Origin: an uncultured Thermoleophilia bacterium
GTDB lineage: Bacteria > Actinomycetota > Thermoleophilia > UBA2241
Reading direction: 5' to 3'
Length of the DNA: 64,000 bases
NCBI GenBank assembly: GCA_963834905.1
Contig: CAWIDR010000037.1
Location: 93,023-157,022, forward strand
The translations under genes and the position numbers were made by a program. The notes under the pieces were generated by a model. The model searched no databases, was not told the DNA's origin, and saw only the letters and a program-made list of their open reading frames with translations. Shown here piece after piece: positions 3,917-36,140 of this stretch (the stretch's first letter is position 1; every line of letters begins with the position of its first letter).

Positions 3917-3972
3917 ATGAGCACGGTAGAACGAGCAGTGCGGGGTGAATCCATGAGCACGGTCACAGAAGA
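3901..3972 (+). repeat. In-frame 36-nt tandem duplication at the hdrC/hdrB junction, duplicating the hdrB start region
   Basis: agtgcggggtgaaGCGatgagcacggt.. (3901) versus agtgcggggtgaaTCCatgagcacggt.. (3937). Protein: VRGEAMSTVERA / VRGESMSTVTED. Confidence 0.75.
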
Positions 3973-7095: not shown

Positions 7096-7096
7096 C

Positions 7097-9638: not shown

Positions 9639-10465
9639 ACATCTACCAGCCGCTGCTCACCACGGTCACCGAGGTGGTCGACGAGACCGCCGACACGCGG
9701 ACCCTGCGCCTGGAGTTCCAGGACGAGGCCGTGCGCAAGGACTTCGCCTTCAAGGCCGGCCAGTTCGGCGAGTACAGCGTGTTCGGCGCCGGCGAGAGCA
9801 CCTTCTGCATCGCCAGCTCGCCGACCCGCGAGGGCTACATCGAGTGCAGCTTCAAGGCGATCGGCAAGGTGACGACCGAGCTGCGCGAAGTGAACGTCGG
9901 CGACACCGTCGGCTTCCGCGGCCCCTACGGCAACTGGTTCCCGGTCGACGACTGGAAGGGCAAGGACATCGTCTTCGTCGCCGGCGGCATCGGCCTCGCG
10001 CCGGTCCGCTGCGTCATCTGGAACGTCCTGGACCGGCGCGACGAGTTCGGCGACGTGACCATCGTCTACGGCGCCCGCTCGGTCGAGGACCTGGTGTACA
10101 AGCGCGAGCTGGAAGAGTGGGGCTCGCGCTCCGACGTCAAGATGGTGACCACCGTCGACCCCGGCGGCGACACGCCCGACTGGACCGGCGAGGTCGGCTA
10201 CGTCACGCCAGTCGTCGAGAAGACGGCGCCCAAGGCGGACAACGCCATCGCCGTCGTCTGCGGCCCGCCCATCGTGGTCAAGCTCACGCTGCCGGTACTG
10301 GAGCAGCTCGGCTTCGCCGACGACGCCGTCTTCACCACGCTCGAGAACCGCATGAAGTGCGGGCTCGGCAAGTGCGGCCGCTGCAACATCGGGCCCGTGT
10401 ACGTCTGCAAGGACGGGCCCGTCTTCACCGCCGCCCAGATGAAGCAGCTCCCGCCGGAGTTCTGA
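9635..10465 (+). CDS. FAD/NAD(P)H-binding oxidoreductase with C-terminal 2Fe-2S (AsrB/HydG/PyrK/FlxA-like)
   Basis: GQFGEYSVFG, VFVAGGIGLAPVR (ferredoxin-reductase fold), C-terminal CGLGKCGRCNIGPVYVCKDGPVF cluster motif. Confidence 0.75.
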   Translation: MNIYQPLLTTVTEVVDETADTRTLRLEFQDEAVRKDFAFKAGQFGEYSVFGAGESTFCIASSPTREGYIECSFKAIGKVTTELREVNVGDTVGFRGPYGNWFPVDDWKGKDIVFVAGGIGLAPVRCVIWNVLDRRDEFGDVTIVYGARSVEDLVYKRELEEWGSRSDVKMVTTVDPGGDTPDWTGEVGYVTPVVEKTAPKADNAIAVVCGPPIVVKLTLPVLEQLGFADDAVFTTLENRMKCGLGKCGRCNIGPVYVCKDGPVFTAAQMKQLPPEF

Positions 10466-10590
10466 GCCGGGAGCGGCGACCGGCGTCGCCAGCCCGGCGG
10501 CCGCGAAGGACCTTTGGGCCTAGCAGTCGGCGGGGAGCCGCGCGCCGTACCGGGGCCGCATCCGCGGTGACGGCAGAACATCCTGGCGGT

Positions 10591-11463
10591 ATGCTCGCTT
10601 CGTCGATGAGATTCCACAAGTACCAAGGCCTCGGTAACGACTACATCGTCCTCGAGCGAGTCGACGGCGACTGCCCCACGCCGGAGATGGTCCGGAGGAT
10701 CTGCGACCGCCACCTGGGCGTCGGGTCCGACGGCATCCTGATGGAGGCCGCCGGACCCGAGGACCCGTTCGCCCTGCGCATCTTCAACCCGGACGGGTCC
10801 GAGGCCGAGAAGAGCGGCAACGGCTTGCGCATCTTCGCTCGCTACCTCTGGGATCAGGGCCGCGTCGGGGACGGGGCCTTCTTCGTCGTCACCAAGGGCG
10901 GCACCGTGCGGTGCCGGGTCCTCGACTCCGGGCGGACGGTCTTCGTCGAGATGGGCACAGCGAGCTTCGACAGTGCGGCGATACCGGTCGCGGGACGTCG
11001 TCGCGACGTCGTGGACGAGGAGATCGACGTCGGCGGCGAGCGCCTGCGCTTCACCGGCGTCACCGTCGGCAATCCGCACTGCGTCGTCCACGTCGACGAG
11101 GTCTCGGCAGAGCTCGCCCGGCGTCTGGGTCCTCAGCTCGAGACCCACACCGCGTTCCCCGACCGCACCAACGTGCAGTTCGCCCAGGTCATCGATGCGC
11201 ATCGCATCGCCATCGAGATCTGGGAACGAGGCGCCGGCTACACCCTGGCGTCCGGCACCAGCAGCTGCGCAGCCGCCGCGGCCTCGGTCCGCCTCGGCCG
11301 CTGCCGCGGCGACGTGACCGTGATCATGCCCGGCGGCAGTCTCGAGATCGGCGTGGGCGAGGGCTACGAACTGACCATGATGGGCCCTGTGGGGAGGATC
11401 GCCGACGGCGTCCTGGCGGACGACCTTCTGAAAGGACGGCAAGAGCACGCGCCGGCCGGCTGA
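10591..11463 (+). CDS. dapF: Diaminopimelate epimerase
   Basis: FHKYQGLGNDYIV, EKSGNGLRIFA, GNPHCVV, ERGAGYTLASGTSSCA (both catalytic Cys regions). Alternative start at 10606. Confidence 0.85.
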   Translation: MLASSMRFHKYQGLGNDYIVLERVDGDCPTPEMVRRICDRHLGVGSDGILMEAAGPEDPFALRIFNPDGSEAEKSGNGLRIFARYLWDQGRVGDGAFFVVTKGGTVRCRVLDSGRTVFVEMGTASFDSAAIPVAGRRRDVVDEEIDVGGERLRFTGVTVGNPHCVVHVDEVSAELARRLGPQLETHTAFPDRTNVQFAQVIDAHRIAIEIWERGAGYTLASGTSSCAAAAASVRLGRCRGDVTVIMPGGSLEIGVGEGYELTMMGPVGRIADGVLADDLLKGRQEHAPAG

Positions 11464-11481
11464 CGGGATGGGAGGTCGAGG

Positions 11482-11900
11482 GTGAACAAGAGGCTCGGCT
11501 GGATCGATGCCGTCTCGTATCTGGCCTACCTGGTCCTTACGGCGCTCGCCGTCGTGTACGGCGAGCGCACCGCACTCTGGTATGTCGGACTCTTCTTCTC
11601 CGCCGTGTGTGCCGTGGCGTGGTTCGTCGCCAGGTGGCAGCTGGGGCGATCGTTCTCGGTCGGACCGGAAGCCCGAGGACTCGTGACGCACGGCCTGTAC
11701 TCCCGGCTCCGCCATCCCATCTACGTCTTCGGGACACTGGCGATTCTCTTCAGCCTCCTCGCCCTGCAGGGATGGCAGGCGCTGATCGTCTGGGTCATCG
11801 TGATCGTGATCCAGATCCGTCGCGCCCAGCGCGAGGAGCAGAGTCCTCGAGAAGGCGTTCGGCGCCGAGTACGCGGCGTATCGCGCCCGGACGTGGTTCT
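11482..11900 (+). CDS. Isoprenylcysteine carboxyl / phospholipid methyltransferase family membrane protein (frameshift ~11842)
   Basis: Hydrophobic N-terminus, GLYSRLRHPIYVFG motif. The C-terminus continues in another frame as VLEKAFGAEYAAYRARTWF*. Confidence 0.6.
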
Positions 11901-11932
11901 AGCTGCGCCCGCGGCGCAGGACGATCGCGCTC

Positions 11933-12156
11933 GTGGCGGCCAAGGGCAAGGACCTGAGCGTCATCGGCGCCGACGTCGCCCGTCAGTGTCTGGCGGCGGG
12001 GCTGAACGACGAGATCGTCGTGTTCGTCGCGCCGATCCTGCTCGGCGACGGCATCCGTTTGGTCAGCCGGCTCGACAAGGCCCCCGTGGAACTCGAACTG
12101 CTGGCGCCTCCCGCGCGGGAGCCGTGACGACCCTGCGCTTCCGGGTACTCAGATGA
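11933..12156 (+). pseudogene. C-terminal remnant of a RibD_C / dihydrofolate-reductase-like protein (N-terminal ~100 aa missing)
   Basis: KGKDLSVIGADVARQCLAAGLNDEIVVFVAPILLGDGIRL, then VTTLRFRVLR* after a frame change at ~12125. Only the last ~75 aa of a ~180-aa fold are present. Confidence 0.5.
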
Positions 12157-12192
12157 CGTCCGCTGGTCGGGCCGGCTCGGGAGCAGCCGCGC

Positions 12193-13101
12193 CTACCTGA
12201 GCGCCCGCCCGATGAACCTCGCCTCGGCGGGCGCCACCTTGCTCGCGTACTCGTGGTCGTGCCCGCCCTTGCTGAACCCGCCCGCGGCGGGTCTCGTGAG
12301 GGCGGCCGTCAGGTAGGTGACGTAGCCGTAGAACGGGTCCTGCTTGCCGCAGTCGATGCGCAGGTCGACCCCGGCAAGCCGGTCGGCGTGGGCGATCACG
12401 TCGTACTTCGCAAAGTCGGCCGCGTCATCGAACGCATCGCGCGGCCCCAGCATCATCGCGTCGTAGCTGGTCCAGACCGCGGGGCTGACGGCGACCACCG
12501 CGGCGAAGAGGTCCGGATCGGTCTCCCCGGCGACCAGCGCGCCGTAGGCCCCCATCGACCAGCCGATGATCGCGCGCTTGCGCCCTCCGCCGCCGAGCTT
12601 GAAGCGGCGGGCGCACGCCGGGATCAGCTCGTGGAGCAGCATGCTCAGACGGTCCTCGCCAGAGGTGCGCGGATGCCAGTAGGTGACACCGCCTTCGACA
12701 CCGACCACGGCGTAGGGCGGCGACTCATCCTTGCGGACCGCCGCCGCCACGTAGTCGGCGAACCCCATCGGCGGACCGCCGCCGCGACCCGGCAGGGCGA
12801 AGCAGACGGGAAGCGGATCGCCCGGCTCGGTCCCCGGCGGCCAAGCGATGCGGTAGCCGACCGGCTCATCGACGTAGCGAGAGTCGAGCGTGTAATCGTG
12901 CACTGCGCCCGAGGCGCCGGGGATGTCCACGCCGAGCTTGTCGCCGGCGGCGCCGAGCCAGTCACGCCACGGCGCGACGCGCCAGGCGATACCGCCGGCG
13001 ACCGCCACAGCGGCAGCGAATCCGGCCCCGACCAGGAAACCGCGCCGGGTGATGCCGGCCTCCGAACGCCAGACGGCGCCGGCCTCGCGGGGCCACAGCA
13101 T
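12193..13101 (-). CDS. Secreted alpha/beta-hydrolase (putative esterase family) with twin-arginine signal
   Basis: TRRGFLVGAGFAAAVAVAGG Tat-like leader and the GWSMGAYGAL nucleophile elbow. Start taken at the internal Met (MLWPRE..). Confidence 0.65.
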   Translation of the reverse strand: MLWPREAGAVWRSEAGITRRGFLVGAGFAAAVAVAGGIAWRVAPWRDWLGAAGDKLGVDIPGASGAVHDYTLDSRYVDEPVGYRIAWPPGTEPGDPLPVCFALPGRGGGPPMGFADYVAAAVRKDESPPYAVVGVEGGVTYWHPRTSGEDRLSMLLHELIPACARRFKLGGGGRKRAIIGWSMGAYGALVAGETDPDLFAAVVAVSPAVWTSYDAMMLGPRDAFDDAADFAKYDVIAHADRLAGVDLRIDCGKQDPFYGYVTYLTAALTRPAAGGFSKGGHDHEYASKVAPAEARFIGRALR

Positions 13102-13213
13102 CCAGGTCGTGCCGCATGAGCTCACGCGTCCCGTCCACGAGCCCCATCGTAGCGCAGGCCGCGAGCTGATGTCGTACCATCGTGGACGACCGTCAGGCAG
13201 GAGCGGAGGCGAC

Positions 13214-14192
13214 GTGAGCGAGATCGATCCGGCACCGCAGACTGTGTCCCCGACGATGCGCGCCGTCGGCGCCGTGGTCGGCGCGCCCGACTTCATCCTG
13301 CCGTGGCTGGACCGCTTCTACGACGAGGACGACGCGGAACTGCTCCTCGCGGCCGCGAAGTCGGCTGAGGCGCCGGCCGAGCAGGCCGGCGAACGCCGCA
13401 GGCGCCCTCGCCGGCTTCGATCCGGCGCGGCTCGAGCGCGCCGTCCGCCGCGCCATCCTCGACGTCGACGAGGCCGGCGCCTTCACCCCCGCGGACTTCC
13501 ACGAGCGCCTCGAGATCTGGGCCATGTTCGAGGGCTGGAAGGACGTCCCGCTCGCCGTCCACCGGCAGCTCGCCGACTGGGACGTCGACTCACTACGCGG
13601 AGACGATCCGCGCCGATGTCGAGGCGGTCCGCGACGGCCACCCCGGCGACTCCTACGAGGCCCGGTACAGCTACGTCCTCCTGCACGAGGCGGAGGCGAT
13701 CGTCGCCGCCCAGGACCACATCTACCTGTGGCCGTGCGACTGCCGCTCCTCGTCGGCAAGTGCCGCAAGCCGAAGGACGTGTGCCTGCGCTTCAACAACG
13801 ACCGCGGCCTCGGCTGGGAGATCTCGAGGGAGCGCGCCGTCGAGATCCTCCGCGCCACCGACAAAGCCGGCCTCATGCACACGGCCGACCTGCAGGACGA
13901 CATCGCCGACACCTCCTCGATCTGCAACTGCTGCACCGACTGCTGCTACCCGCACCTCGCCTCAGAGCGGCTGGAGGTGAGCGACGTGTGGCCGGTGCGC
14001 CGGCACGTCGCCAGCATCGACATGGACCTCTGCACGTCCTGTGGACGCTGCGGCCTGCGCTGCCCCTTCGAGGCCATCGTCTGCCGGCCGGACGGACGCC
14101 CGGAGTACGACCCGGCCCGCTGCCGCGGCTGCGGCCTCTGCGCGACCGGCTGCAGCGCCGACGCCATCGAGTTGCGGCCGCTGGCCGGCTAG
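13214..14192 (+). CDS. 4Fe-4S dicluster domain protein of unassigned family; about three frame disruptions (~13385, ~13605, ~13745)
   Basis: Pieces join as ..FILPWLDRFYDEDDAELL.. / ..FHERLEIWAMFEGWKDVP.. / ..YLWPCDCRS.GKCRKPKDVCLRFNN..CNCCTDCCYP..CTSCGRCGLRCPFEAI..CRGCGLCATGCSADAI. Confidence 0.5.
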
Positions 14193-14243
14193 CCAGGCCC
14201 TCCCGGGGCAGGACCATCCACGCGCCCGCCCGAGCGCCGAGCC

Positions 14244-14720
14244 TCACGAGGGGGCGGCTCGGCGACGCTCGAAGACCCAGCGCGCGACAAGCCAACCCAC
14301 GGCCGCCGCGACGGCCGCCATCGCGACCGCTGCGACGATGTCGATCGGCGAGTGCACATGGGCGAGGACGCGAGCCACGCCGGCGGCCAGCGAGACGGCG
14401 ACCAGCACCAGCCCCCAGGGACGCGACACGACGAGGACGCACAGCGCGACGAACATGGTGACGGCCGTGTGGTCCGAAGGGAACCCGTTGTCCGCCGCGT
14501 GCGGGAAGAGCGGCGCCACGCCTGAGGTCACGAACGGCCGCGTGTCGTAGTACAGAGCGCCGCCGACCTTGATGAGCGCGAGGCAGACGATGCCACCGAC
14601 GACGCCGGCGACCAGTAACTCGAGCTTCTGCTGGCGCGGCAGACGCAGCCAGACCAAGAAGGCGATGACGAAGCTGACGATGAAGCCGTACTGCGCAAGG
14701 TCGGCGATGAGGGAGTCCAT
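14244..14720 (-). CDS. PAP2-family phosphatase (undecaprenyl-diphosphatase/BcrC-like), integral membrane
   Basis: FPSDHTAV and ARVLAHVHSPIDIV motifs; multiple TM helices. Confidence 0.75.
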   Translation of the reverse strand: MDSLIADLAQYGFIVSFVIAFLVWLRLPRQQKLELLVAGVVGGIVCLALIKVGGALYYDTRPFVTSGVAPLFPHAADNGFPSDHTAVTMFVALCVLVVSRPWGLVLVAVSLAAGVARVLAHVHSPIDIVAAVAMAAVAAAVGWLVARWVFERRRAAPS

Positions 14721-14806
14721 CGCTCGAGTCTACCCGTGCCGCGGCTCGCGCGCGCCGCGCTTCTGTTGCGCCGGCGAGCCAGACATGCGGCCGGCAGCGA
14801 GTCGCC

Positions 14807-16247
14807 TCACGCCTCCGGATGGCCCAGCGCACCGGTCCGGATGAGCCCGCGCAGCAGTCCGGGATCGGCAGGCACGCCGCGGCTCCCGGCCTTCGGCGGG
14901 ATCTTGTCGCGGATCAGTCCACGCGCCGCGCTCGTCCCTCCGCCAAGCGGCCCGCGTCCGCGCAGGTCGATGGCCTGCACGGCGACGAGCGCCTCGATCG
15001 CGATGACGCCCTCTCCGAGGTCGACCATGGCCGCGAGGCGCCGCGCGCTCAGCGGTAGCAAGGTGGCGCGGTCCTCGATGCCCTCGGCGCCCGACGTGCT
15101 GACGACGGTGAACGACACCGGCTGCGCCAGCAGGGTCGCCTCCGCGGTCAGCGACTGCGCCGTGATGGCATGGATGCTGAGGCCCATGTCGGGCCGGTCG
15201 CGGTCCAGGCTGAGGCCGGTCGGCAGGCCCGACCAGGGCGTGTCCAGGAGCTTGACGGCGCGCTCGCTGGCCGCGGTGAACACCGAGGCGAGCGCGATGC
15301 GGACGTAGTCGAGGGTGGCCGCGAGCGGCAGACTCTCGTAGCTGGAGACGGAGACGATCTCGCCGGCGGCGACGTCCACGAGCGGGTTGCCCTGGGCCGC
15401 GTTCAGCTCGACCCCGAGCACGCCGAGCGCGTGCTCGAGCGCCTCGCGGCCGACCGCCTGCACGGCGACGGTGCTGCGGAACGTCAGCGGGTCCTGCAGG
15501 TTCCGCGCGGCGCCATCCTGCCAGAGGTAGCTGCCCTCGAGCAGCCCACGGGTGCGCGCGAGGGTGGCCGCGAAGCTCGCGTGAGGGCGCACGTCCTCGA
15601 CGCCGGGATGCAGCACGGAGAGGTTCGCGCCGAAGCCCTCCAGCGCGAGCGCGCCCGCGACATCCGCCGCGTCGAGCAATCTCTCCGCGTCGTGGAGCGC
15701 CAGCGCTGCCGACGCGGTGCCGAACGCGCTGTTGTTGAGCAGCGCGAGGCCTTCCCCTGCGCGCAACTCCATGTCTCCGATCACGCCGTGCGCGAGGTCG
15801 GCCATCGCCGAGAGATCGGAGACGCCGATGGATCCGTGCAGCCGGACGATGGGATGACGGTCGGTGTTGAGCGCCGCGAGCAGAGCGTCGGCCAGCTCCG
15901 GCCGGACGACCGTCGTCCCGCCGGCGAAGAGGTTGGCGACGACTGAGCATGGCCGCCCGCACGACGTCGTCCGTCGCCGGCGGCCCCTGTCCGGCGCGGT
16001 GGTCCTGGATCTGGCTGCGATTGAAGCGGCTGACGTCCTCACGGGTGACGGTCACTCGCTTCTGGGCGCCGTAGCCGGTGGTCAGGCCATAGGTGGGCAC
16101 GCCGCTCTCGAACACGCGCTGCGCCAGGGAGTGCGCGGCGGCCATCCGCTCGCGCGCCGCGGCGTCGAGCGCTACGCGTTCGCCGCGGCGCGCCACCGCC
16201 ACGACTTCGTCGACGGTCAGGTCCCGGCCTGTCAGGAGGACGGTCAT
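14807..16247 (-). CDS. Aromatic-amino-acid/histidine ammonia-lyase family protein lacking the Ala-Ser-Gly MIO triad (frameshift ~15946)
   Basis: N-terminus MTVLLTGRDLTVDEVVAVARRGERV..YGLTTGYG, core ..RLHGSIGVSDLSAMADLAH.. where hutH in this window has [29 protein letters not shown] and C-terminal helices are typical of the fold. Confidence 0.75.
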
Positions 16248-16348
16248 GCCGTGCGCATTCCCCGGTGGCGCGACAGGCGAACGTAGATCTGGCATCCGCT
16301 GCCGCTGCGGATGGCGCCCGCCCGGCAAAGCAGATACCTTACGGCGCG

Positions 16349-17839
16349 ATGGACAACGACCCCCTTCACGACTTCGAACTCCTGATCCGGTCCAGGTACG
16401 GCGCGCTGCAGATCGAGACGGCCGAGGAAGACCGCGCCGCAGCTCTCGTGGAGCGGGCGGCCTGGCAACTGCAGCTCCCGCTGTTCGTGTGGCGGCGCGC
16501 CACCGGGCTGCGCCGGGCGGGCGCGCCCAGCGGCGTCTACGGCAGCGAGGACCCGCGCGCGGCACTCGGCCACGTCATCAACTCGCAGCTTCCGGCCCTG
16601 TACGTGTTCCACGGCCTCGGGCCCGAGCTCGACAAGCCTGAGGTGGCCGACCTCTTGCGCGAGGCCGCGGAGCGGCTCGGCGGCCACTCCGGCGCCGTGG
16701 TCCTGACCGGGGGGGACGTCAGGCTCCCGGAGTCGCTGCGTACGGTCGTCGGCCAGGTGCACCTGCCGGCGCCCACCCGCGAAGAGTACGAGGACCTGCA
16801 GCGCCGCGTCGTGCAGGAGCTCTCGGCGCGCATGGGTGTCCAGGTGTCGCTGACGCCGGCCGACCAGGACCGCCTCCTCGCCAACCTCCAGGGGCTCACG
16901 CTCGCCGAGTCCGAGAAGCTGCTGACGCGGCTGATCGTCGAGGACGGCCGCCTCGACGCGGACGACATCACGCGGGTCGCCGAAGCCAAGCGGGAGCTGA
17001 TCGAACGGGATGGTCTGCTCGAGTATCAGCCGACCACACAGTCACTGGAAGAGATCGCCGACCTCGTGCAGCTCAAGGAATGGCTCGGGAAGCGGCGCCT
17101 GTTCATGGAAGACCCACGACGCGCCGCCGACTTCGGCCTCGAGTTCCCGCGCGGGATCCTGCTCGTCGGCGTCCCCGGTTGCGGCAAGAGCCTCTGCGCC
17201 AAGGCCGTCGCCGCGGCGTGGGGACTGCCGCTGGTGCGACTCGACCCCGGCGCGCTCTACGACAAGTACATCGGGGAGACCGAGCAGAACTTCCGCAAGG
17301 CTGTGACCGCGGCCGACAGGCTGGCGCCGCTGGTGCTGTGGATCGACGAGATCGAGAAGGCCTTCGCCGCAGGCGGCGGCGATGAGGACGGCGGAACGTC
17401 GCAACGCGTGCTCGGCACGTTCCTCTCCTGGCTGCAGGAGCGCCGCGGCGATGTCTTCGTAGTGGCCACGGCCAACGATGTCCAGCGACTGCCCGCCGAA
17501 CTGCTGCGCAAGGGCCGCTTTGACGAGACGTTCTTCGTGGACCTTCCCGACGAGGCCACGCGCGTCGCGATCCTGGACATCCACCTGCGCAAGCGCAAGC
17601 AGAAGCCCAGCGACTTCGACCTGGCGCTGCTGGCGCGCGAGAGCGAGGGCCACAGCGGCGCCGAGCTCGAGCAGGTCGTCGTCTCCGCGCTCTACACCGC
17701 CTTCTCGGCGAAGGTTCAGCTGAGCACCGAACTGCTGCTCGACGAGCTGCGCCGGATGCCGCCGATAGCCTCGATCGCGCGCGAGAGGATCGCCTTCCTG
17801 CGCCAGTGGGCCGGAGACCGCACCGTCCCGGCGAACTGA
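16349..17839 (+). CDS. AAA+ ATPase (CDC48/SpoVK-like single AAA module) with an uncharacterised N-terminal domain
   Basis: Walker A GVPGCGKS, Walker B LVLWIDEIEK, second region of homology ATANDVQRLPAELLRKGRFDE. Confidence 0.8.
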   Translation: MDNDPLHDFELLIRSRYGALQIETAEEDRAAALVERAAWQLQLPLFVWRRATGLRRAGAPSGVYGSEDPRAALGHVINSQLPALYVFHGLGPELDKPEVADLLREAAERLGGHSGAVVLTGGDVRLPESLRTVVGQVHLPAPTREEYEDLQRRVVQELSARMGVQVSLTPADQDRLLANLQGLTLAESEKLLTRLIVEDGRLDADDITRVAEAKRELIERDGLLEYQPTTQSLEEIADLVQLKEWLGKRRLFMEDPRRAADFGLEFPRGILLVGVPGCGKSLCAKAVAAAWGLPLVRLDPGALYDKYIGETEQNFRKAVTAADRLAPLVLWIDEIEKAFAAGGGDEDGGTSQRVLGTFLSWLQERRGDVFVVATANDVQRLPAELLRKGRFDETFFVDLPDEATRVAILDIHLRKRKQKPSDFDLALLARESEGHSGAELEQVVVSALYTAFSAKVQLSTELLLDELRRMPPIASIARERIAFLRQWAGDRTVPAN

Positions 17840-17864: not shown

Positions 17865-18905
17865 TCAGCCGTGCGGGGTGATCACGGCGCGCCCCAGAAC
17901 GGTGCCGGCGCGCAGGCGTTCGTAGGCATCCGCAGCGCGTTCGAGCGGGAACGACTCGGTGTGCGCGTGGATCTTCCCGGCGTGCGCAAGCTCCACGACC
18001 TCGACCAGTTCCCCGTAGCTGCCCCAGTAGGGGACGGTCACGCTCACGTCGAACGGCAGCGCTCCGTAGCCGACCGGGATCCGACCGCCGGCGAGCCCGA
18101 TGGCCTGGATGGCCCCGCCGGGACGGACCACCGTCGCCGCCAGCGCCATCGTCGCATCGGAGCCGACGCAGTCCAGCACGGCGATCGGGCCGAGCCCGCG
18201 CGTGAGCTCACGGATCCGCGCTGCCGCCGTCTCGCCGGCGGCGACCGTCTCCTCGGCGCCGACCTCGTGCGCCAGCTCGAGCTTCGCGCCGTCGACGTCG
18301 ACGGCGATCACCCGGGCGGCCGAGACCGCGCGCAGCAGTTGCACCGCCATGTGTCCGAGGCCGCCGATGCCGATCACCAGCGCCCAGGCGCCCGGCGTGA
18401 GCAGCGGCAGCACCGAGCGGATGGCGTGGTACGGCGTCAGGGCGGCGTCGGAGAGCGGCGCCGCGGTGCCAGGGTCGAGGTCACCGAGGGACACGAGCAG
18501 ACGCGCGCTGGGGACCAGCATGTACTCGGCCATGCCGCCGTCGAGGCCAAAGCCGCCGACGGGCACGTCCTCGGTCATGGCCAGCTCGCAGAGCGTCTCG
18601 CGTCCCGCGCGACAGGCCGCGCAACGACCGCAGCCCCAAGGACCGTATGCGATGACGGGTTCGCCGATCTGCCACCCGTCGACGCCCGGTCCAAGCGCCT
18701 CGATCCAGCCGGCGTTCTCGTGTCCGAGCGTGAACGGCAGCTCGTAGTCGTGAGTACCCTCGGGCCAGTCCATCATGCGCAGGTCGGTGTGGCACGCGCA
18801 GGCGCCCCCCATCTTGAGGAGGACCTCGCCGATCCCCGGCTCGGGAATCGGCACGTCGCGCGGCTCCGGCGGCTGCTGCCAGGCGACCAGCTGGTAGGCC
18901 TTCAT
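17865..18905 (-). CDS. Zinc-dependent alcohol dehydrogenase (MDR family)
   Basis: CHTDLR, GHENAGWIEALG, GPWGCGRCAACRAGRETLC (structural Zn), GIGGLGHMAVQL Rossmann motif. ATGA overlap with the upstream gene. Confidence 0.85.
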   Translation of the reverse strand: MKAYQLVAWQQPPEPRDVPIPEPGIGEVLLKMGGACACHTDLRMMDWPEGTHDYELPFTLGHENAGWIEALGPGVDGWQIGEPVIAYGPWGCGRCAACRAGRETLCELAMTEDVPVGGFGLDGGMAEYMLVPSARLLVSLGDLDPGTAAPLSDAALTPYHAIRSVLPLLTPGAWALVIGIGGLGHMAVQLLRAVSAARVIAVDVDGAKLELAHEVGAEETVAAGETAAARIRELTRGLGPIAVLDCVGSDATMALAATVVRPGGAIQAIGLAGGRIPVGYGALPFDVSVTVPYWGSYGELVEVVELAHAGKIHAHTESFPLERAADAYERLRAGTVLGRAVITPHG

Positions 18906-20338
18906 CCGGCGGGAACCACCGCGTCCAGCCGCTCAGCGAGGCCGCCGGGCAGCGGCGCGACTTCGTGCGTCGCCAGCAGCTCGCGCGCCTTCTGGCGCGC
19001 CTTCTCGGTGGCGTCGAGCGCGCCGCCCTCTGCCCAGCGGTCGTAGCTCGCCCGGTTGAGGATCTGGGCGCGCCACTGGTTGCTGCGCAGGTTGCGGCGC
19101 GTGTGCCGCTGCCCGAGGAAGTCGCCGCCGGCGCCGACCGCCTTGATCACGTCCACGGCCAGCGTCTCGTCGGAGACCTCGAGCTCGGCGAGCAGCCGCC
19201 GGTCGCGGGCGATGAACTCGGCCACCAGCACGACCTCCGCGAGCGAGCCGGAGAGGCCGAAGTCCATGTAGCCGACGTCGTGGTTCAGGTTGGCGCCGAG
19301 CTGCATGGAGAGCTTGGTGATCTCGTCCGCCTCCATGCCCGCCTGGGCGTCCACGACCTGCGCGTCGGTGTGGCCGCTGAAGCCCCAGTTGGGGATGTCC
19401 AGCCACTTGGCCATCTCGACCTCACACGCGTACGCGCGGATGAACTCAGGAGAGTTGTACGACGACTGCGACGTACCCATGTCGAGGGTGTTGGGGCCCT
19501 GGCCGATGACGAACGGAGCGCCCGGGGCGCGAAGCTGGTGCATGACCAGCCCGAAGAGCGCCTCCGCGAGGCCGAGCGTGATCTGGCCGGCGGTGGTGAT
19601 GGGAGCGGTGCCGCCGGCCACCGGCGAGGGGCAGTAGGTGGACGGGACGCCCTTGTCGGCGCAGAAGAGCAGCTTGTCCACCGTCTCGAACGGGTGCTTG
19701 AGCGGCGTGACCGGCTGGTTGTACATGACGAAGTACGGCTTCTCGCGCAGTGCCGCCTCGCCGCCGCGGACCTCGCAGGCCATGCGCCACATGGGCTCGA
19801 CCGTCTCGACGCCGCCGGCGGTCATCACCAGCGGCTTGGTCGTGGCGGCGATCATCGCGCGGAACTGCCGCGGGTACGCCTCCTGGGCCTCCATGCCGTC
19901 CGGGTAGGCGCCCGACATGACGAAGTCGAGGTCGGGCAGCGCGTCGCAGAGGCGAGCCGCCTCGCCGACGTCTTCCAGTCTGCCGAGGCGGCGCTCCCCG
20001 GTCTCCAGATCGTGCAGGTGCATGACGTCGGAGCCGTTGCCGAAGTAGGAGCGGAGGCCGCCGAGGTCCATGGCCGGCTCGCCGGCGCGGTCGTAGACGA
20101 CGAAGCTCCTGGGCACGGACTCGCGCGCCTGCTCGACGAGGGCGGCCGGAACGTGGACGAGGCCGGCCTCGTCCCTGGTGCAGCCGCCGTCGAGCATGAC
20201 CTGCTCGCCCTCTTCGTGGAGCACGACCATGCCGATGTCGGCGAGGATGCCGAGGGCCGTCTCGTAGATGCGCTGCTTCTGCTCTTCGCGGAGGAAGCTG
20301 ACGCGGCCGGCGCCGATCTCCTTGCTGCTCTGTGCCAT
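18902..20338 (-). CDS. MttB-superfamily methyltransferase, non-pyrrolysine type (quaternary-amine/betaine methyltransferase-like)
   Basis: FLREEQKQRIYETALGILADIGM.., SPVAGGTAPIT, MAKWLDIPNWGFSGHTDAQVVDAQAG (His at the Pyl-equivalent column), GDFLGQRHT. AGGAG RBS before the ATG at 20338. Confidence 0.85.
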   Translation of the reverse strand: MAQSSKEIGAGRVSFLREEQKQRIYETALGILADIGMVVLHEEGEQVMLDGGCTRDEAGLVHVPAALVEQARESVPRSFVVYDRAGEPAMDLGGLRSYFGNGSDVMHLHDLETGERRLGRLEDVGEAARLCDALPDLDFVMSGAYPDGMEAQEAYPRQFRAMIAATTKPLVMTAGGVETVEPMWRMACEVRGGEAALREKPYFVMYNQPVTPLKHPFETVDKLLFCADKGVPSTYCPSPVAGGTAPITTAGQITLGLAEALFGLVMHQLRAPGAPFVIGQGPNTLDMGTSQSSYNSPEFIRAYACEVEMAKWLDIPNWGFSGHTDAQVVDAQAGMEADEITKLSMQLGANLNHDVGYMDFGLSGSLAEVVLVAEFIARDRRLLAELEVSDETLAVDVIKAVGAGGDFLGQRHTRRNLRSNQWRAQILNRASYDRWAEGGALDATEKARQKARELLATHEVAPLPGGLAERLDAVVPAG

Positions 20339-20419
20339 GGTCACTCCTGGACGGCGTTGCGGGCGAGGCGGCCACCACGTCGGGCAGCCGCCTCGCCGAA
20401 CACTACACCGTCTGCGGGC

Positions 20420-21890
20420 CTACTTCACGCCGAGTTCGCGTTCCGCGCCCTCGATTATCGAACGAAGTTCTGCGGCCACCTCGTCGGACAGTGGTTCCGG
20501 CTGGTGCGTCTCGAGGATGCGCCGGGCCTCGGCGAGCGAGCGGTCGTACAGCGTCGTCGCGCCGGCGGCGGTCCACTCCTCGCGGACCCGCCGGTCGATG
20601 AGCTTCGAGTTCGACTGCCCGCGCATGCCCTTGTAGGTGTCCTCGTGCGAGAGGAAGTCCTTGAACGGCCCGACCTCGTCGATGACGTCGACGGACAGCG
20701 TCGCGTCCGTCACCGGGATCCCCGGCACGCAGAACTTGACCATGCGCGCGAACTCCGCATCCATGACCAGTTGCGCGTAATCGATGGTGACGCCCGACTC
20801 CAGCATCCCCAGCCCGTAGATCAGGTTGGCCCCTGCCAACGCCGGCAGCAGGCTGGTGATCGTCTTCTCGTGACCGGATTGGGCGTCCGCCACTTTGGAG
20901 TCGCCCTACGCACCGGCCACCCAGCTGGGCAGCAGGTAGAAGCGCGCGAGGCAGGCGACGCCGGCGCCGATCATGCCGCACTCGGGGCTGCCCACCGAGG
21001 CGCTGGCGAAGCGGAGGTCCATGGCGGTGGTGGACGAGCCGTAGATGACCGGCGCGCCCCTCTGCGTGAGCTGCGCCAGCGTGATGCCGCTGAGCACCTC
21101 GGCGTTGTGGGTGACGAGCGTGCCGGCGAGCGACACGGGCGAGGAGCCGCCGGCCATCGCCATGGAGAGCACGTTGACCGGGATGCCGGCGCGGGCGCCG
21201 GTGATGATGATCTCGCAGGCGTCCTTGACCAGCTTGAGCGGGCTCACGGGGCAGGTCAGGAACGACAGGATGGGGCGGCGGCGCAATGCCTCCGCCCCGC
21301 CGGCGATCGCCGCCGCCATGTCGATCATCTTGCGGGCGCAGAAGCCCGAGAGAGGCCCGATGGTGGCGTGCTTGGTGGTGTTGCTGAAGATCGCCTCGGC
21401 GTTGTGCAGCGCCGCCGTGTCCGGCGGCACGTCGTGGGCGCCGAGCGGCCGCTCGACGACGTCGATCTCCGGCAACGCGTCGATGATCTTCGTGCAGTCG
21501 GCGACGTCCTGCTTGCGGCTCTCGTGCAGCTCGCCGGTGTACGGGTCGACGACCTGGATGCCCTCGCCGAAGTTGGTGAAGCCGACCCGGCCGTCCTCGA
21601 GCACGACGTCCCGGGCCGGGTCGCGGCCGCACATGACGACGGTGGAGGGCGCCGAGCGGACCGCGTCCTCGACGAGGTGCGCCGGCAGGCGCACCACGTT
21701 CGTGGCCGCGGTCGACGTCGGCGCCCGCCGCCGCGAAGATCTGCCGGGCTTCGTCGTCCTCGACGAAGACGCCCGTGCGCGACAGCACTTCGAGCGTCGC
21801 GCCGTGGATCTCGCGCAGCTCGTCGTCGGTGAACACCTCGAGCCTGAAGCCGCCGCTCTTGCGCGCTCCCGCGCGCGGGTTTCTGATCAT
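20420..21890 (-). CDS. mttB: Trimethylamine:corrinoid methyltransferase MttB with an in-frame TAG (20906-20908) at the pyrrolysine position; one frameshift ~21711
   Basis: ORFs 20906..21697 and 20420..20893 share one frame and are separated only by TAG: ..[43 protein letters not shown].. Also GIPVNVLSMAMAGGSSPVSLAGTLVTHNAEVLSGITLAQLT. The N-terminus LEVFTDDELREIHGATLEVL lies in a third frame. Confidence 0.85.
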
Positions 21891-21891
21891 G

Positions 21892-23286
21892 TCAGCCTCC
21901 CGCCGTGCGTTCCTTGAACTTCTCGACGCTGTTGATGGGCACGTCGAGCACCCGGGCGATGTTGAACTTCGCCTCGATCTGGTTGGCCTGCCCCGGCTGG
22001 CTGATCGCGTAGCTGTGGACGCGGCCGAAGCCGAACTCGTTGCGGACGTCGGTCATGGCGACCGGGTCCGAGAGGTCGAACGGTGTCACGCCGAGCTTGT
22101 CGGCGACGTACTGCTTGGCTTCCTTGAGGCGCATGCCCCGAGTCATCTGCATACGGGCAACCAGGTCTCCGCCTGCCCGAATACCGCCGATGCTCGCGGC
22201 TTGCGCGTGGGCGTTGTGCATCCCATGGGGATCGCCCGAACCCACCTACAACCCGTCCACGTGCAGCAGCTCGACGAAGGACTTGGCCGCCCGGCAGACC
22301 GCGTCGGAGGGCAGGTGGACGAACATCGGCACGCCGCCGACGCCCATGCCGGCGTTGGGGTGCACCGGGATCTCGGCGACCTCCATGCACGGCTTGATCA
22401 GGGCGATGGCGCGCGCCATGTTCCAGGCGAGCGACTTGCCGGTGTTGATGTTGACGACGGGGCCGAACATCGTGGCGCCGGCCTTCTGCGCGAGCAGGAG
22501 CTGCTCGCGCGGCCAGAGGCCGGCCAGCCGCACGCCGTCCCACTCGAGCTGGCCGTGCATGCCGAGCACGAACTCGCCGGCCATGCCCAGCTGCACGCCC
22601 ATGTCGGGGTACTTCTCGCGGATGATCTTCGTGGCGCGCAGCGCCGCGAGGAACTCGGGATCGCCGGAGGCGCCGGTCGTGTCCCAGTCGATCGCGTCCG
22701 CCCCGGCCTCCCACTGCGAGTCGGCCAGCTTGACCATGTCCTGGACGGCCATCTCGACCGCCTCTTCGGCGGCGGCGCGCGCCTCCGGGATCTTGCCCAG
22801 CGGCAGCAGCTCGTTCCAGTTCTCGCACGGGCCGTCCGGCTTGGAGTAGAGGCCCAGGTTGGGCATGACGCCGTACTGCAGCGGGGCGATGGTGCACAGC
22901 TGCGCGTCGTGCATGTACTGGGCCTCGTACGCCAGGATCGTGCGCACGACCTTGAGGGAGTAGTCGCCGACGCAGAGCTCCAGGAGGTCGGCGCCCATCC
23001 ACTGCTCGTAGGACTGGAGGTCCTGGATGCGCGTCGCGTGGGTCTTCATGCCGGTGCCGTCGCAGCTGAGGACGATCTCCTCGCCCACGTCGACCCCGAT
23101 GAAGCGCAGCGGCGAAGCGTAGATCTCGAGCAGGTGGTCGATCTCGTCGTCGGTGAGCAGCGGCACCTTGGCGCGCTTGGCCGCCATCTCGGACCCTGCG
23201 ATGAGATCAGCCCGGATCTCGCTGCGCGTCATCTGCGTGAAGGTGCCGTCGCCCATGCGGGTCGGCACCCTGGCTTCGTGCGTCAT
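21892..23286 (-). CDS. mtbB: Dimethylamine:corrinoid methyltransferase MtbB with an in-frame TAG (22246-22248) at the pyrrolysine position
   Basis: ORFs 22246..23370 and 21892..22245 share one frame and are separated only by TAG: ..AKSFVELLHVDGL-TAG-VGSGDPHGMHNAH..IRAGGDLVARMQMTRGMRLKEAKQYVADKLGV.. Also PDGPCENW, GMAGEFVLGMHGQLEWDGVRLAGLWP, GMGVGGVP. Start at MTHEARVPTRMGDG with a GGGGGAGGAAA RBS. About 464 codons. Confidence 0.88.
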
Positions 23287-23333
23287 ACGTTTCCTCCCCC
23301 TGAGAAAAGGCCGCGACCCGCGCTTCGCGGCCG

Positions 23334-23357
23334 CACTAATCAACCGGTCAATTAGCG
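23334..23357. promoter_or_regulatory. Same operator motif upstream of mtbB (site A): reverse strand reads CGCTAATTGACCGGTTGATTAGTG
   Basis: 20 of 22 positions are identical to site B. On the mtbB strand a TTGACA lies ~31 nt upstream, the same spacing as at site B. Confidence 0.55.
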
Positions 23358-23474
23358 TGATACAGTCCACCCCAGCGGACCGGTGATGTCAAGACGGGCC
23401 GCCGATGGTCCGGACAGGTATCATCGCGGCGCCGCGGCGTGACGCGGAGTGACGAAGACGGAAGAAGGCGGGCG

Positions 23475-24926
23475 ATGCGAGCGCACACGACATGGCTGAG
23501 CGAGGCGGAGAAGAGCAGGATCGTCGACGAGGCGGTGGAACTGCTCGGCCGCGTCGGCATGCGGTTCGCGGGCTCCAGGGTCCTGCCGCTGCTGGCCGAG
23601 CGCGGCGCAGCCGTGGACGAGGCCACCGGCATCGTCAAGCTTCCGCGCGAGCTCGTGGAGTGGGCGGCCGGCCAGTGCCCCCGCCGCGTCCTGATGGCCG
23701 GCCTCACCGAGGCCGACGACGTCCTGCTTGATGAGGGCGAGCCCTTCCACTTCGTGCCCAGCGGCTGCGTCGCCAAGACGCTGGACTTCCGCACCGGCGA
23801 GCGCCGCGCCAGCACGCTCCAGGACCTGCGCGAGTGCACGGCGCTCATGGACGAACTGCCGCAGCTCGACATCATGTGGACCCAGGTGAGCGCGTCGGAC
23901 GTGTCGCTCGAGCAGCGTGAGCTCGAGGAGTACTTCACGATGCTCACCGAGACGCGCAAGCACGTCACCTTCGTCGACTGCCCCGGCGAGGTCGACGCTG
24001 TGCTCCGCATCTGCGAGACGCTCTCCGGCGACCTCGACCGCTTCCGCGCGCGCCCGCGCATCTCGACCGTGGTGACCGCCGCGTCGCCCCTCCAGGTCGA
24101 CGGCGGCGCCCTCGACATCCATGTCGCCCTGGCCAAGCACGGCGTGCCCATCGAGGTGTACTCGATGACCATCGCCGGGGCCACGTCGCCGGTCACGCTC
24201 ACCGGGACCGTCACCCAGGGCCTGGCCGAGTTTCTCGGCATCGCCACCGCCCTGCAGGTCGCGGCTCCGGGCGCCCGCCCCATCTTCTGCTTCGGCTCCG
24301 GCGTGCTCGACATGCTTCGCACCACCTTCGCGCTCGGCTCGCTCGAGAGCGGGCTGATGGGCGCCATGGCCTCCGAGGTCGGCCACTACCTCGGCGTGCC
24401 GACGCTCAACCCCGGGTTCTCGACCGACGCCAAGGACGCGGGCGTGCAGGCGGGCTACGAGAAGGCGATGAAGGCGGCCACCGTCTGCGGCGCCGTCCCC
24501 GACATGATCTCGGGCTGGGGGCTCATCGACTCGCACAACACGATGTCGCTGCCGCAGTCGGTCATCGACAACGAGATGGCGGCGATGCTGCGCCGCCTTC
24601 ACCAGCCGGTCGAGGTCTCGGACGCGACGCTCGCCGGCGACTCCATCGCCGCGGTCGGCCCCGGCGGCAGCTTCCTCGGCCAGAAGGACACCGCACGGCG
24701 CATCCGCGCCGGCGAGCACTACATGCCCACGCTCTCCAACCGCCTCTCCTACGAGAAGTGGCTGGAGGAGGGCACGACCACGAACGACGTGGCCAACGAG
24801 CAGGTCGACGCGCTCCTCGCGGCGCACGCCGGCAAGGCCCCGTACATCGACGGCGCGCAGCTGGACGAGCTCGCCGCGATCTGCCACGTCGGCGACGAGT
24901 CGATGCGCCGCGCCCGCCGCGAGTAG
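23475..24926 (+). CDS. MttB-superfamily methyltransferase, non-pyrrolysine type
   Basis: WLSEAEKSRIVDEAVELLGRVGM, MTIAGATSPVT, VPTLNPGFSTDAKDAGVQAGYEK, GSFLGQKDT. Divergent from mtbB. Confidence 0.85.
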   Translation: MRAHTTWLSEAEKSRIVDEAVELLGRVGMRFAGSRVLPLLAERGAAVDEATGIVKLPRELVEWAAGQCPRRVLMAGLTEADDVLLDEGEPFHFVPSGCVAKTLDFRTGERRASTLQDLRECTALMDELPQLDIMWTQVSASDVSLEQRELEEYFTMLTETRKHVTFVDCPGEVDAVLRICETLSGDLDRFRARPRISTVVTAASPLQVDGGALDIHVALAKHGVPIEVYSMTIAGATSPVTLTGTVTQGLAEFLGIATALQVAAPGARPIFCFGSGVLDMLRTTFALGSLESGLMGAMASEVGHYLGVPTLNPGFSTDAKDAGVQAGYEKAMKAATVCGAVPDMISGWGLIDSHNTMSLPQSVIDNEMAAMLRRLHQPVEVSDATLAGDSIAAVGPGGSFLGQKDTARRIRAGEHYMPTLSNRLSYEKWLEEGTTTNDVANEQVDALLAAHAGKAPYIDGAQLDELAAICHVGDESMRRARRE

Positions 24927-32515: not shown

Positions 32516-33361
32516 ATGTCAAAGAAAGGTCTCTTCGACCTGCACGAGATGAAGCGCGCCGGCGAGAAGATCGCCTGGCTCACCGCCTACGACTACCCGA
32601 CGGCGACGTTCGAAGAGGCGGCCGGGATCGACATGATCCTCGTCGGCGACTCGCTCGGCATGTGCGTGTACGGCTATCCGGGCACCGTGCCGGTCACGAT
32701 GGACCAGTGCATCGTGCACAGCGAGGCCGTGCGCCGCGGCGCCCCCAACACGTTCGTCGTCGGCGACATGCCGCTGGGCAGCTACCAGGCCAGTGACGAG
32801 GACGCGGTGCGCAACGCCATCCGCTTCCTCAAGGAGGCGAACGTCGACGCCATCAAGCTCGAGGGCGGCGTGCGCACCGTGAGCCGCGTCAGGGCGATCC
32901 TCGACGCCGGCGTCGCCGTCTGCGGCCACATCGGCCTCACGCCGCAGAGCTCCGGCCAGCTCGGCGGCCACAAGGCGCAGGGCCGCACCCTCGAGTCCGC
33001 CAAACTGGTGGTCGAGGACGCCCGTGCCCTCTACGAGGCGGGCGTCCAGCTCCTCCTCGTCGAGGCCGTGCCGCCGGAGGTGGCCGGCTTCATCCGCAAC
33101 GAGCTGCCGATCCCGGTGCTCGGCATCGGCGCCGGCGAGGACGTCGACGGCCAGCTGCTGATCGTCAGCGACGTGCTCGGCACGTTCCAGGCGTTCACGC
33201 CCAAGTTCGTCAAGAAGTACGCCGACCTCGCCGGCGTCTCCACGGCCGCGCTCACCGAGTACGTCAAGGACGTGCGCGGCAGCGCGTTCCCGGAGGAGCA
33301 GCACTGCTACCGCATGCTCGAGGGCGAGCAGGACAAGTTCACGGCCTGGGCCAAGAGCTGA
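32516..33361 (+). CDS. panB: 3-methyl-2-oxobutanoate hydroxymethyltransferase (ketopantoate hydroxymethyltransferase) family
   Basis: IAWLTAYDYPTA, ILVGDSLGM, VVGDMPLGSY, AIKLEGG, GHIGLTPQS, LLLVEAVP. Confidence 0.85.
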   Translation: MSKKGLFDLHEMKRAGEKIAWLTAYDYPTATFEEAAGIDMILVGDSLGMCVYGYPGTVPVTMDQCIVHSEAVRRGAPNTFVVGDMPLGSYQASDEDAVRNAIRFLKEANVDAIKLEGGVRTVSRVRAILDAGVAVCGHIGLTPQSSGQLGGHKAQGRTLESAKLVVEDARALYEAGVQLLLVEAVPPEVAGFIRNELPIPVLGIGAGEDVDGQLLIVSDVLGTFQAFTPKFVKKYADLAGVSTAALTEYVKDVRGSAFPEEQHCYRMLEGEQDKFTAWAKS

Positions 33362-33383
33362 GGCGAGGACTGCGAAGGGACCT

Positions 33384-34641
33384 GTGATGCACTCGCTCGC
33401 TGAAGACCTCACCCCGCCCGGCCCCGGCTTCGTGCCGGCCGACCGGGTCTCGCGGCTCGGGACCGAGACGGTCTTCGCCGTCTCGGCCGAGGCGGCCGCG
33501 CTCGCCGCGCAGGGACGGACGATCTACCCGTTCCACCTCGGCGACCTCAACATCCCCACCGCCGAGCCCATCGTCGCGGCGATGAACCAGGCCATCCGCG
33601 ACGGGAAGACGACCTACTGCGCCAACGCCGGCGTCATGCCGTTGCGCGAGGCCCTGGCCGCCGACGTGGCCGCCGCGCGCGGGGTCACCTACACCGCCGA
33701 CAACGTGTCCGTGCAGCCGGGCGGCAAGCCTGTCATCGGCAAGTTCCTCATGGCCGCCATGAACATGGGCGACGAGGTCCTCTACCCCAACCCCGGCTTC
33801 CCGATCTACGCCTCGTTCATCGAGTTCGTGGGCGGGGTGGCCGTGCCCTACGGGTTCGTGGACGACGGCGACCGCTACACCATCGACATCGACGCGATCG
33901 AGCGGCGCATCACGCCGCGCACGCGCCTGCTCATCCTGAACGACCTGCACAACCCGACGGCCGCCGAATGTACGCCTGAGGAGCTGGACCGCCTCGCCGA
34001 GATCGCGATCCGGCACGACCTGCTCGTGCTCAGCGACGAGGCGTACTTCGACGTGCGCTTCGAGGGCGCGAGCCAGTCGATCGTCTCGCGCCCCGGCATG
34101 CTCGAGCGCACGGTCATCCTGTACACGTTCAGCAAGAAGTACGCGATGACGGGCTGGCGCCTGGGCGCCGCCATCGGGCCCAAAGCCATCATCGACATCA
34201 TCACGCAGATGAACGTGAACATGGAGTCGTGCCCCAACCACTTCGCCCAGTACGGCGCCCTCGAGGCCCTCACCGGCGATCAGGCCGGGCCCCGCGAGAT
34301 GATGGCCCGGCTCAAGGGCAGGCGCGACGCCGCGCTGCGCGATCCTGGGCGAGACGCCGGGCGTGCGCTGCCACACGCCGGAGTCCACGTTCTACCTGTA
34401 TCCGGACGTGACCGGCGCCGTCCGCCTGACCGGCTGCGCCGGCCACGAGGACTTCCGGCGCCTCCTCCTCGACAAGACCGGCGTCTCGTTCTGCACCCGC
34501 CAGCACTTCGGGAAGGCAGTACCGGGCGAGACCGGATACCATCTACGTCTCGCCTACTCAGGCGTCACCACAGCACAGATCGAGGAGGGCCTCGGCGCGT
34601 TCAAGGCCTTCATCGAATCGACAGAGCCCTCAGAGTCCTGA
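33384..34641 (+). CDS. Class I/II pyridoxal-phosphate aminotransferase (aspartate/aromatic type); frameshift ~34335
   Basis: YCANAGVMPLREALA, LYPNPGFPIY, LNDLHNPT, YTFSKKYAMTGWRLG (PLP Lys). The C-terminus lies in the frame of ORF 34363..34641 (PESTFYLYPDV..RLAYSG). Confidence 0.8.
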
Positions 34642-34661
34642 CCCCCCAAGGAGACACCGCG

Positions 34662-36116: not shown

Positions 36117-36140
36117 CGCGGTCCGCACGAAGGAGCCGGC

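Follow-up and report, generated by a model that had tools for sequence, protein, structure and literature searches.

The window analysed here, 64,000 nucleotides of contig CAWIDR010000037.1 from the uncultured Thermoleophilia assembly GCA_963834905.1, carries on its minus strand a homologue of the dimethylamine methyltransferase gene mtbB whose reading frame is interrupted by one in-frame TAG at the position where known MtbB proteins carry pyrrolysine (Pyl). The frame runs from an ATG at 23286 through 346 sense codons (22249–23286) to the TAG at codon 347 (22246–22248), and then through 117 further sense codons to a TGA at 21892–21894, so that codons 348–464 and the stop occupy 21892–22245. 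We found no stop besides the single TAG and no change of frame in the window sequence or its translation. The first part is delimited by its translation and by matches to PF09505 and TIGR02368, the second by frame conservation in homologues and by its ratio of nonsynonymous to synonymous substitution rates (dN/dS), and the TAG itself is placed as the presumed Pyl codon by its alignment column, by homologues, and by the first three positions of the RNA element PYLIS_2. The original prediction had described the open reading frames (ORFs) 22246..23370 and 21892..22245 as one frame split only by a TAG, and the sequence agrees; the reported context (..SFVELLHVDGL-TAG-VGSGDPHGMHNAH..) and all three reported motifs (PDGPCENW; GMAGEFVLGMHG..DGVRLAGLWP; GMGVGGVP) are present in the translation. 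The ORF 22246..23370 is real, but its mechanical start is an upstream GTG, and both the alignment and a ribosome-binding site read from the sequence (GGGGGAGGAA, 23291–23300, minus strand), a G-rich purine tract conserved in orthologues, favour the ATG at 23286, a start already implied by the span of 21892–23286 first given for the gene. GC content at third codon positions is 0.95 on the 5′ side of the TAG and 0.86 on the 3′ side, in a window of ~70% GC, and thus both parts of mtbB have the composition of coding sequence in this frame. With O for pyrrolysine, the tryptic peptide spanning the TAG would read SFVELLHVDGL-O-VGSGDPHGMHNAHAQAASIGGIR.

The joined product of 464 residues, with X at the TAG, matches the Pfam family PF09505 (Dimeth_Pyl) over profile positions 4–462 of 463 (E = 7e-166; 552.8 bits against a cut-off of 25) and the NCBIfam equivalog TIGR02368, [dimethylamine--corrinoid protein] Co-methyltransferase, over residues 9–460 on profile positions 7–465 of 466 (416 bits against a cut-off of 369.1). 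These near-full-length matches bear out the proposal that the joined product is an MtbB from end to end. A search of the PDB with MtbB returned no solved relative, and tblastn of MtbB against plasmids gave no match. For comparison with the archaeal enzyme, a Methanosarcina MtbB sequence served as a search query only; it was 97% identical to a real protein of 355 residues that represents a cluster of 341 members. The comparator gene itself comes from locus L162 (GCA_002508465.1, 43% GC), where the order is mttB, a B12-binding protein gene (mttC), an EamA permease gene and mtbB, and which we call Methanosarcina-type on the basis of this gene order, its GC content and named Methanosarcinaceae matches in the same search. 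Its mtbB consists of 355 codons, a TAG and 111 codons, giving a product of 467 residues. In a global MAFFT alignment, in which the two proteins are 45% identical overall, the window TAG and the TAG at codon 356 of the Methanosarcina-type gene share column 357, as the original prediction had anticipated in placing the TAG at the pyrrolysine position. In the methylamine methyltransferases as a class, the Pyl column is the position of the catalytic residue. By every testable criterion the window gene is an intact member of the Pyl-dependent MtbB family, and the corresponding enzyme activity is predicted for its product.

We scanned one genome per GTDB species and obtained 80 mtbB loci, with 64 mtbB-carrying assemblies. 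Almost all loci come from metagenome-assembled genomes (MAGs) labelled Thermoleophilia, Actinomycetota or Actinomycetes, and the labels point to soil, peat, lake-sediment and bioreactor sources. The style of the assembly names suggests a mixture of long-read assemblies and short-read ones, with UBA2241 and the palsa and bog MAGs among the short-read group. TAG stands at the same codon in 78 of the 79 homologous copies that reach the site, and all 78 TAG-bearing copies run on in frame to a normal stop, the one exception being a local frame slip. Where homologues align, the segment after the TAG shows 58–99% amino-acid identity. The TAG is also present in 18 homologues that adjoin pylS in other phyla, with labels including Dehalococcoidales, Aminicenantes, Eubacteriales, Thermodesulfobacteriota and Spirochaetes among others. 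Across 12 orthologues, dN/dS (Nei–Gojobori) was 0.05–0.18 for residues 348–460 and 0.06–0.30 for residues 1–346. Thus, the conservation of the TAG and the low dN/dS after it rule out that the TAG is a sequencing error or a recent nonsense mutation, or that the tail goes untranslated; the earlier argument that the TAG is not an indel-type error also holds, since the frame is unshifted and the TAG is seen in independent short-read and long-read assemblies. The closest relative, MFD02134.bin.2.57, has an MtbB 98% identical to that of the window and ~92% DNA identity over 15 kb, and the MAGs bog_752 and palsa_645 carry mtbB orthologues at 82–84% identity. Some relatives contain several TAG-bearing mtbB paralogues (four copies in L039; also L011, L055 and L065), with up to four TAG-bearing mtbB genes in 21 kb plus two TAG-bearing mttB paralogues. 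These numbers indicate an expansion of Pyl enzymes in the clade.

We also searched for the genes that decode and make pyrrolysine. The query for PylS was the catalytic domain of Methanosarcina mazei PylRS, confirmed to be 100% identical to PDB 2q7e. A protein search with this domain returned only Methanosarcina sequences among the matches listed; GC-rich PylSc-like matches from a representative protein library were aligned and then used to scan the genome collection. About 41 of the best 80 loci with PylSc homologues came from Thermoleophilia-type assemblies, at least 26 of which carry mtbB, and ARAGORN found tRNA-Pyl(CUA) in 24 of these Thermoleophilia-type loci. One such locus, L091, belongs to the MAG MFD05942.bin.2.81, whose MtbB is 97% identical to that of the window, and has the order pylSc, an MtbC-like corrinoid gene, a radical-SAM gene, pylSn, an unrelated gene, pylT, pylD, pylC and pylB (8001–16426). 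Its products exceed the NCBIfam equivalog cut-offs for PylSc (323 bits; cut-off 178), PylSn (126; 51), PylB (440; 348), PylC (345; 248) and PylD (201; 150), the models being TIGR02367, TIGR03912, TIGR03910, TIGR03909 and TIGR03911 for pylSc, pylSn and pylBCD. L091 and equivalent pyl loci (L081–L112 and L163–L228) share this unusual layout, with pylB-pylC-pylD-pylT on one strand, followed by the unrelated gene, pylSn, the radical-SAM gene and the mtbC-like gene, and pylSc on the opposite strand.

An alignment of 14 sequences of tRNAPyl supports a cloverleaf fold with a predicted anticodon stem of 7 bp, an encoded CCA and compensatory changes. A lineage-specific search pattern for pylT, GGGGGNTCGATCGNAAGGATCRNCGYGGRCTCTAAAYCCRCGYAG, matches 66 species-representative genomes, all but one of which are labelled Thermoleophilia, Actinomycetota or Actinomycetes. 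In the closest relative of the window, MFD02134.bin.2.57, one 8-kb locus (L222) holds pylB, pylC, pylD, pylT(CUA) and pylSn. Overall, pylS and/or pylT were found in at least 53 of the 64 mtbB-carrying assemblies, the incompleteness of MAGs notwithstanding, and in MFD01872.bin.2.207 mtbB, pylS and pylT lie on a single contig of 1.5 Mb, which rules out a binning artefact. ARAGORN found no tRNAPyl beside mtbB in 60 mtbB loci of relatives; mtbB and the pyl genes of this lineage are not linked.

A conserved RNA structure begins at the mtbB UAG. The 100 nt at 22149–22248 (minus strand) match Rfam PYLIS_2 (RF02509) over its full length (model positions 1–100 of 100; 62.1 bits, gathering score 36, E = 4e-14), and the first three positions of the model are the UAG itself. 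The 120 nt starting at the UAG are predicted to fold into two hairpins with a minimum free energy of −67.6 kcal/mol (z = −5.84 compared to dinucleotide shuffles), and the same fold is predicted separately in nearly all of 49 distinct mtbB orthologues. Folding and covariation together delimit a long stem-loop at 22129–22206 (minus strand; 43–120 after the U of the UAG), with an apex hairpin at 22154–22179. In a gap-free alignment of orthologues, 91% of cells pair, compared to 24–44% when the partners are slid, and double changes occur in 64 cells as against 22 in shuffles, a value reached by none of 500 shuffles. Pairs 72:93 (GC/AU), 75:90 (AU/CG/GC) and 78:87 (CG/GC) covary at third codon positions and include co-occurring A- or T-ending codons, which are rare in this genome. 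Measured against all variable-column pairs of the same gene alignment, which share its phylogeny, these three rank in the top 0.13–0.33% of 60,024 pairs. We discounted a further high-ranking pair, 55:108, as a probable clade marker, because column 108 covaries equally with several unrelated columns. In mtbB of other bacterial phyla the apex hairpin is predicted as well; in the Methanosarcina-type gene it is weak. A canonical structure 3′ of the mtbB UAG has already been described (Have et al., 2013; PMC3639795), and the stem-loop is this known PYLIS_2 element, with the synonymous covariation as supporting detail. According to work summarised in that paper, the PYLIS of mtmB is dispensable but raises yield. 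The conserved RNA at the mtbB UAG may favour read-through.

UAG also serves as an ordinary stop codon in this lineage. Of the 29 long ORFs in the window that composition marks as confident, 10 have TAG as their stop, and in the Thermoleophilia loci the corresponding proportion is 30%; after removal of Pyl sites and duplicates there were 106 TAG ends and 467 TGA ends, and the share of TAG is ~18–30% of long ORFs overall. Back-up stops were no nearer after TAG than after TGA (median 57.5 versus 47 codons, p = 0.2). TAG is too frequent as an ordinary stop for UAG to have been reassigned; insertion of Pyl must therefore contend with termination, an ambiguity in decoding that the lineage apparently tolerates. 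Expression of mtbB may be subject to control as well. A candidate promoter element, TTGACA (23387–23392), and an AT-rich near-palindrome, CTAATTGACCGGTTGATTAG (23336–23355), together spanning 23336–23392 on the minus strand, are retained ahead of mtbB in the majority of 14 orthologous loci, between flanks that are not conserved. This pattern suggests repressor-controlled transcription of mtbB through CTAATTGACCGGTTGATTAG as a putative operator.

The gene directly downstream, on which the original prediction was silent, is mttB, for trimethylamine methyltransferase (20420–21890, minus strand; TIGR02369), whose start overlaps the mtbB stop and which has its own in-frame TAG at 20906–20908. After repair of one frameshift, its product scores 741 bits against the TIGR02369 cut-off of 525. 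In a phmmer alignment its TAG position, X328, aligns to K334 of M. barkeri MttB in PDB 7xcm, residue 334 of that structure being Pyl334 of the M. barkeri enzyme (PMC9842639), and the window protein keeps Tyr364 and Gly110 of M. barkeri MttB. The mttB TAG is kept in 52 homologues, and in the MttB paralogues that lack Pyl the corresponding column is occupied by His, Ser, Thr or Met. A full-length match to Rfam PYLIS_3 (RF02510; 71.9 bits, gathering score 38) begins at the mttB UAG (20809–20908, minus strand). By every testable criterion this neighbour is a member of the Pyl-dependent MttB family, again with its activity predicted. The frameshift repaired above stems from one extra base in GACCGCGGCC at ~21704–21713 (minus strand), which shifts the frame after about codon 60 and is absent from nine relatives. 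The extra base is likelier to be an assembly error in a long-read consensus, because other genes of the window show similar frame breaks. A gene for a family-5 solute-binding protein at 45572–47393 (plus strand) is split between two frames near 46383–46438, and an Hdr-like region at 5100–8500 (plus strand) contains several frame switches; both are consistent with indel errors of long-read assembly.

The third gene of the cluster, at 18902–20344 (minus strand), encodes an MttB-superfamily paralogue without a TAG (PF06253, E = 6.5e-77) that has CAC, for His, at the Pyl column. Three more MttB-superfamily genes lie in the window, at 23439–24926, ~34690–36116 and 36117–37544. On the plus strand at 33162–37544, one stop-to-stop frame contains an aminotransferase domain and a complete MttB-family domain that ends at a TAG at 36114–36116, and past this TAG the same frame enters another complete MttB-family gene. 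At the junction between aminotransferase and MttB there may be a true fusion, or an indel error may have joined the two; if the cell decodes Pyl, reading through the TAG at 36114–36116 would fuse two MttB paralogues. In relatives, an MtbC-like gene lies between mtbB and mttB in some cases and inside the pyl cluster in others; the product of the pyl-cluster gene is truncated and scores 180 bits against the TIGR02370 cut-off of 215. Farther away, the window carries sequences resembling Mvh-type [NiFe] hydrogenase, HdrB/C, HdrA and MvhD (65–8496, plus strand), judged by eye from translations, and an aldehyde:ferredoxin oxidoreductase gene (38952–40151, plus strand). The original prediction had supposed a host with aerobic-type genes; the Mvh-like hydrogenase, Hdr-like and aldehyde:ferredoxin oxidoreductase genes found instead belong to an anaerobe-type energy metabolism.

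Taken together, these observations lead us to put the probability at roughly 0.88 that the window gene is a Pyl-encoding mtbB and that its UAG is read through by means of a Pyl system whose genes lie in another part of the genome. In such a cell, pyrrolysine would be made from lysine by PylB, PylC and PylD, and an amber-suppressor tRNAPyl(CUA) charged by split PylSn and PylSc would decode the single UAG at codon 347, with the PYLIS_2 RNA possibly tilting the competition with termination towards read-through and the conserved promoter and operator perhaps restricting expression. By analogy with the Methanosarcina system, the pyrrolysine imine of the full-length enzyme of 464 residues would bind and activate dimethylamine, after which a methyl group could be transferred to Co(I) in the corrinoid of an MtbC-like protein. 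Because mtbB opens a cluster in which it overlaps a Pyl-type mttB, itself followed by a non-Pyl MttB paralogue, the organism can probably demethylate trimethylamine and then dimethylamine in a stepwise manner.

Several observations weigh against this account. The pyl genes that the original prediction looked to are present in the closest relatives, where their products pass the equivalog cut-offs, but none of pylT, pylSc, pylSn, pylB, pylC and pylD lies in the 64-kb window: ARAGORN found no tRNA genes in the window, and hence no tRNAPyl, and tblastn with PylS gave no match in the window or in the mtbB loci. We thus infer the Pyl machinery of this organism from relatives of at most ~92% DNA identity, and the case for pyrrolysine in the proteins of this lineage comes from sequence. 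No gene for a corrinoid (B12-binding) protein was found in the 64-kb window. TAG is a common stop without nearby back-ups, and efficient Pyl insertion would therefore extend many proteins. Finally, the one-base insertion in mttB, if real, would mean that part of the pathway is decaying in this strain.

The last of these points, together with the lack of pyl genes in the window, would fit a relic, in which a Pyl-type mtbB was inherited, Pyl decoding was subsequently lost, and the TAG now terminates translation of a dead or decaying gene. We consider this very unlikely, although it survives somewhat better than the other alternatives. The 3′ segment has accumulated no stops or indels and has a dN/dS of at most 0.17 compared to close relatives, the nearest relatives all carry pylT and pylBCD, and the mttB indel is weak evidence of decay when other window genes show frame breaks of the long-read type.

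A second alternative is a split gene, in which translation stops at the UAG and restarts at the next GTG and the resulting fragments of 346 and 117 residues assemble without pyrrolysine. The codon after the TAG is indeed GTG, a possible start, and a 117-residue ORF begins there. In the orthologues of L028, L066 and L078, however, the TAG is followed by GCN (Ala), and in the Methanosarcina-type gene by ATC, neither of which is a start codon; thus, the position after the TAG, with Val, Ile or Ala, is conserved as part of a single protein. In this enzyme class the catalytic residue occupies the Pyl column (PMC9842639 for MttB), and a split gene would leave the co-occurrence of mtbB with pyl genes unexplained. 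We rate this explanation as slightly less probable than a relic, and give the same low weight to the possibility that a suppressor tRNA, near-cognate or other, reads through the UAG and puts a canonical amino acid in place of pyrrolysine. Sequence alone cannot tell which residue is inserted, but the lineage has kept a dedicated tRNA(CUA) along with PylS and PylBCD, and these satisfy specific family models. An error of sequencing or assembly that turned a sense codon into TAG has a negligible chance of being correct, for although indel-type errors are present in the window, independent assemblies, Illumina-based and long-read, show this TAG in 78 of 79 copies, and it is not credible that a substitution error should have struck the one codon at which every known MtbB gene has TAG.

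With a Pyl-encoding mtbB as the preferred explanation, the evidence from this locus and from related loci puts a full Pyl system, Pyl-type mtbB and mttB included, into a widespread lineage of GC-rich Actinomycetota found in soils, peat and sediments. Such bacteria could consume trimethylamine and dimethylamine in their habitats and thereby compete with methylotrophic methanogens for methane precursors. For annotation, mtbB and mttB genes of this kind are routinely called as two fragments. As to the genetic code, the lineage would be a naturally occurring example of ambiguity in UAG decoding at high GC content, and could supply divergent PylRS/tRNAPyl pairs. A broader proposal, which we offer tentatively and regard as possible but doubtful, is that a large clade of uncultured Thermoleophilia in soil, peat and sediment forms a major and barely described bacterial reservoir of Pyl decoding (at least 66 genomes with pylT), in which Pyl insertion is gene-specific or conditional and the PYLIS of mtbB is selected as RNA and promotes read-through in bacteria. 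That insertion would be gene-specific or conditional follows from the share of genes, about a fifth or more, that end in UAG without back-ups. If the proposal is true, the mtbB stem-loop would be the first comparative evidence of RNA-level selection on an mtbB PYLIS and of a role for it in promoting read-through in bacteria.

Methanogens, together with a modest number of Bacillota and Deltaproteobacteria, are the best-known users of pyrrolysine, and the original prediction had accordingly regarded the host as unusual. Actinobacterial precedent makes it less so. Among 81 bacterial genomes, two from Actinobacteria were listed with PylRS (Guo et al., 2022; PMC9630628), and some Actinobacteriota MAGs from Stordalen Mire were reported to express amber-containing mttB and mtbB (Ellenbogen et al., 2023; PMC10805028); bog_752 and palsa_645, among the orthologous loci found here, are apparently from the same site. 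The window gene is of a kind already known that had so far received only passing notice in this lineage, and the value of the present analysis lies in extent and detail, with no new principle. Full-text literature searches returned no paper that details the Pyl system of Thermoleophilia, and the relevant passages of the papers returned are silent on its gene order, tRNA and breadth.

Compared to these and other known systems, the locus shows a mixture of shared and distinctive features. The Stordalen Mire mttB and mtbB genes are of the same gene family and lineage as the window gene; in the relevant passages of that study, Pyl was deduced from gene truncation only, and those passages are silent on pyl genes, tRNA, PYLIS and the breadth of the clade. 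With Methanosarcina MtbB the window protein shares the flanking motif DG[LI]-O-[VI]G.GDP..GM and the motif RA[AG]GDLVARM, whereas its host is a bacterium of ~70% GC, ~11 residues near position 77 are missing, no mtbC or mttC gene adjoins mtbB in the window, and the downstream acceptor pathway cannot be methylation of coenzyme M. The predicted fold after the UAG extends past the 100-nt Rfam PYLIS_2 model to ~120 nt and is far more stable relative to shuffles (z = −5.8) than that of the Methanosarcina-type sequence, which folds weakly (z = −1.0). The Pyl systems of Bacillota and Deltaproteobacteria (Desulfitobacterium, Desulfosporosinus, Sporomusa and Acetohalobium types) have split PylSn and PylSc together with PylBCD, as do the relatives described here, whose tRNAPyl closely resembles those of Desulfosporosinus and Sporomusa, with the CUCUAAA anticodon loop and the encoded CCA in common. 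The gene arrangement differs, however: in several other phyla the methyltransferase genes adjoin the pyl genes, whereas in the Thermoleophilia they do not. In Desulfosporosinus and Sporomusa, pylT precedes pylSc on a shared strand; in the relatives of the window, pylSc lies on the strand opposite to pylT.

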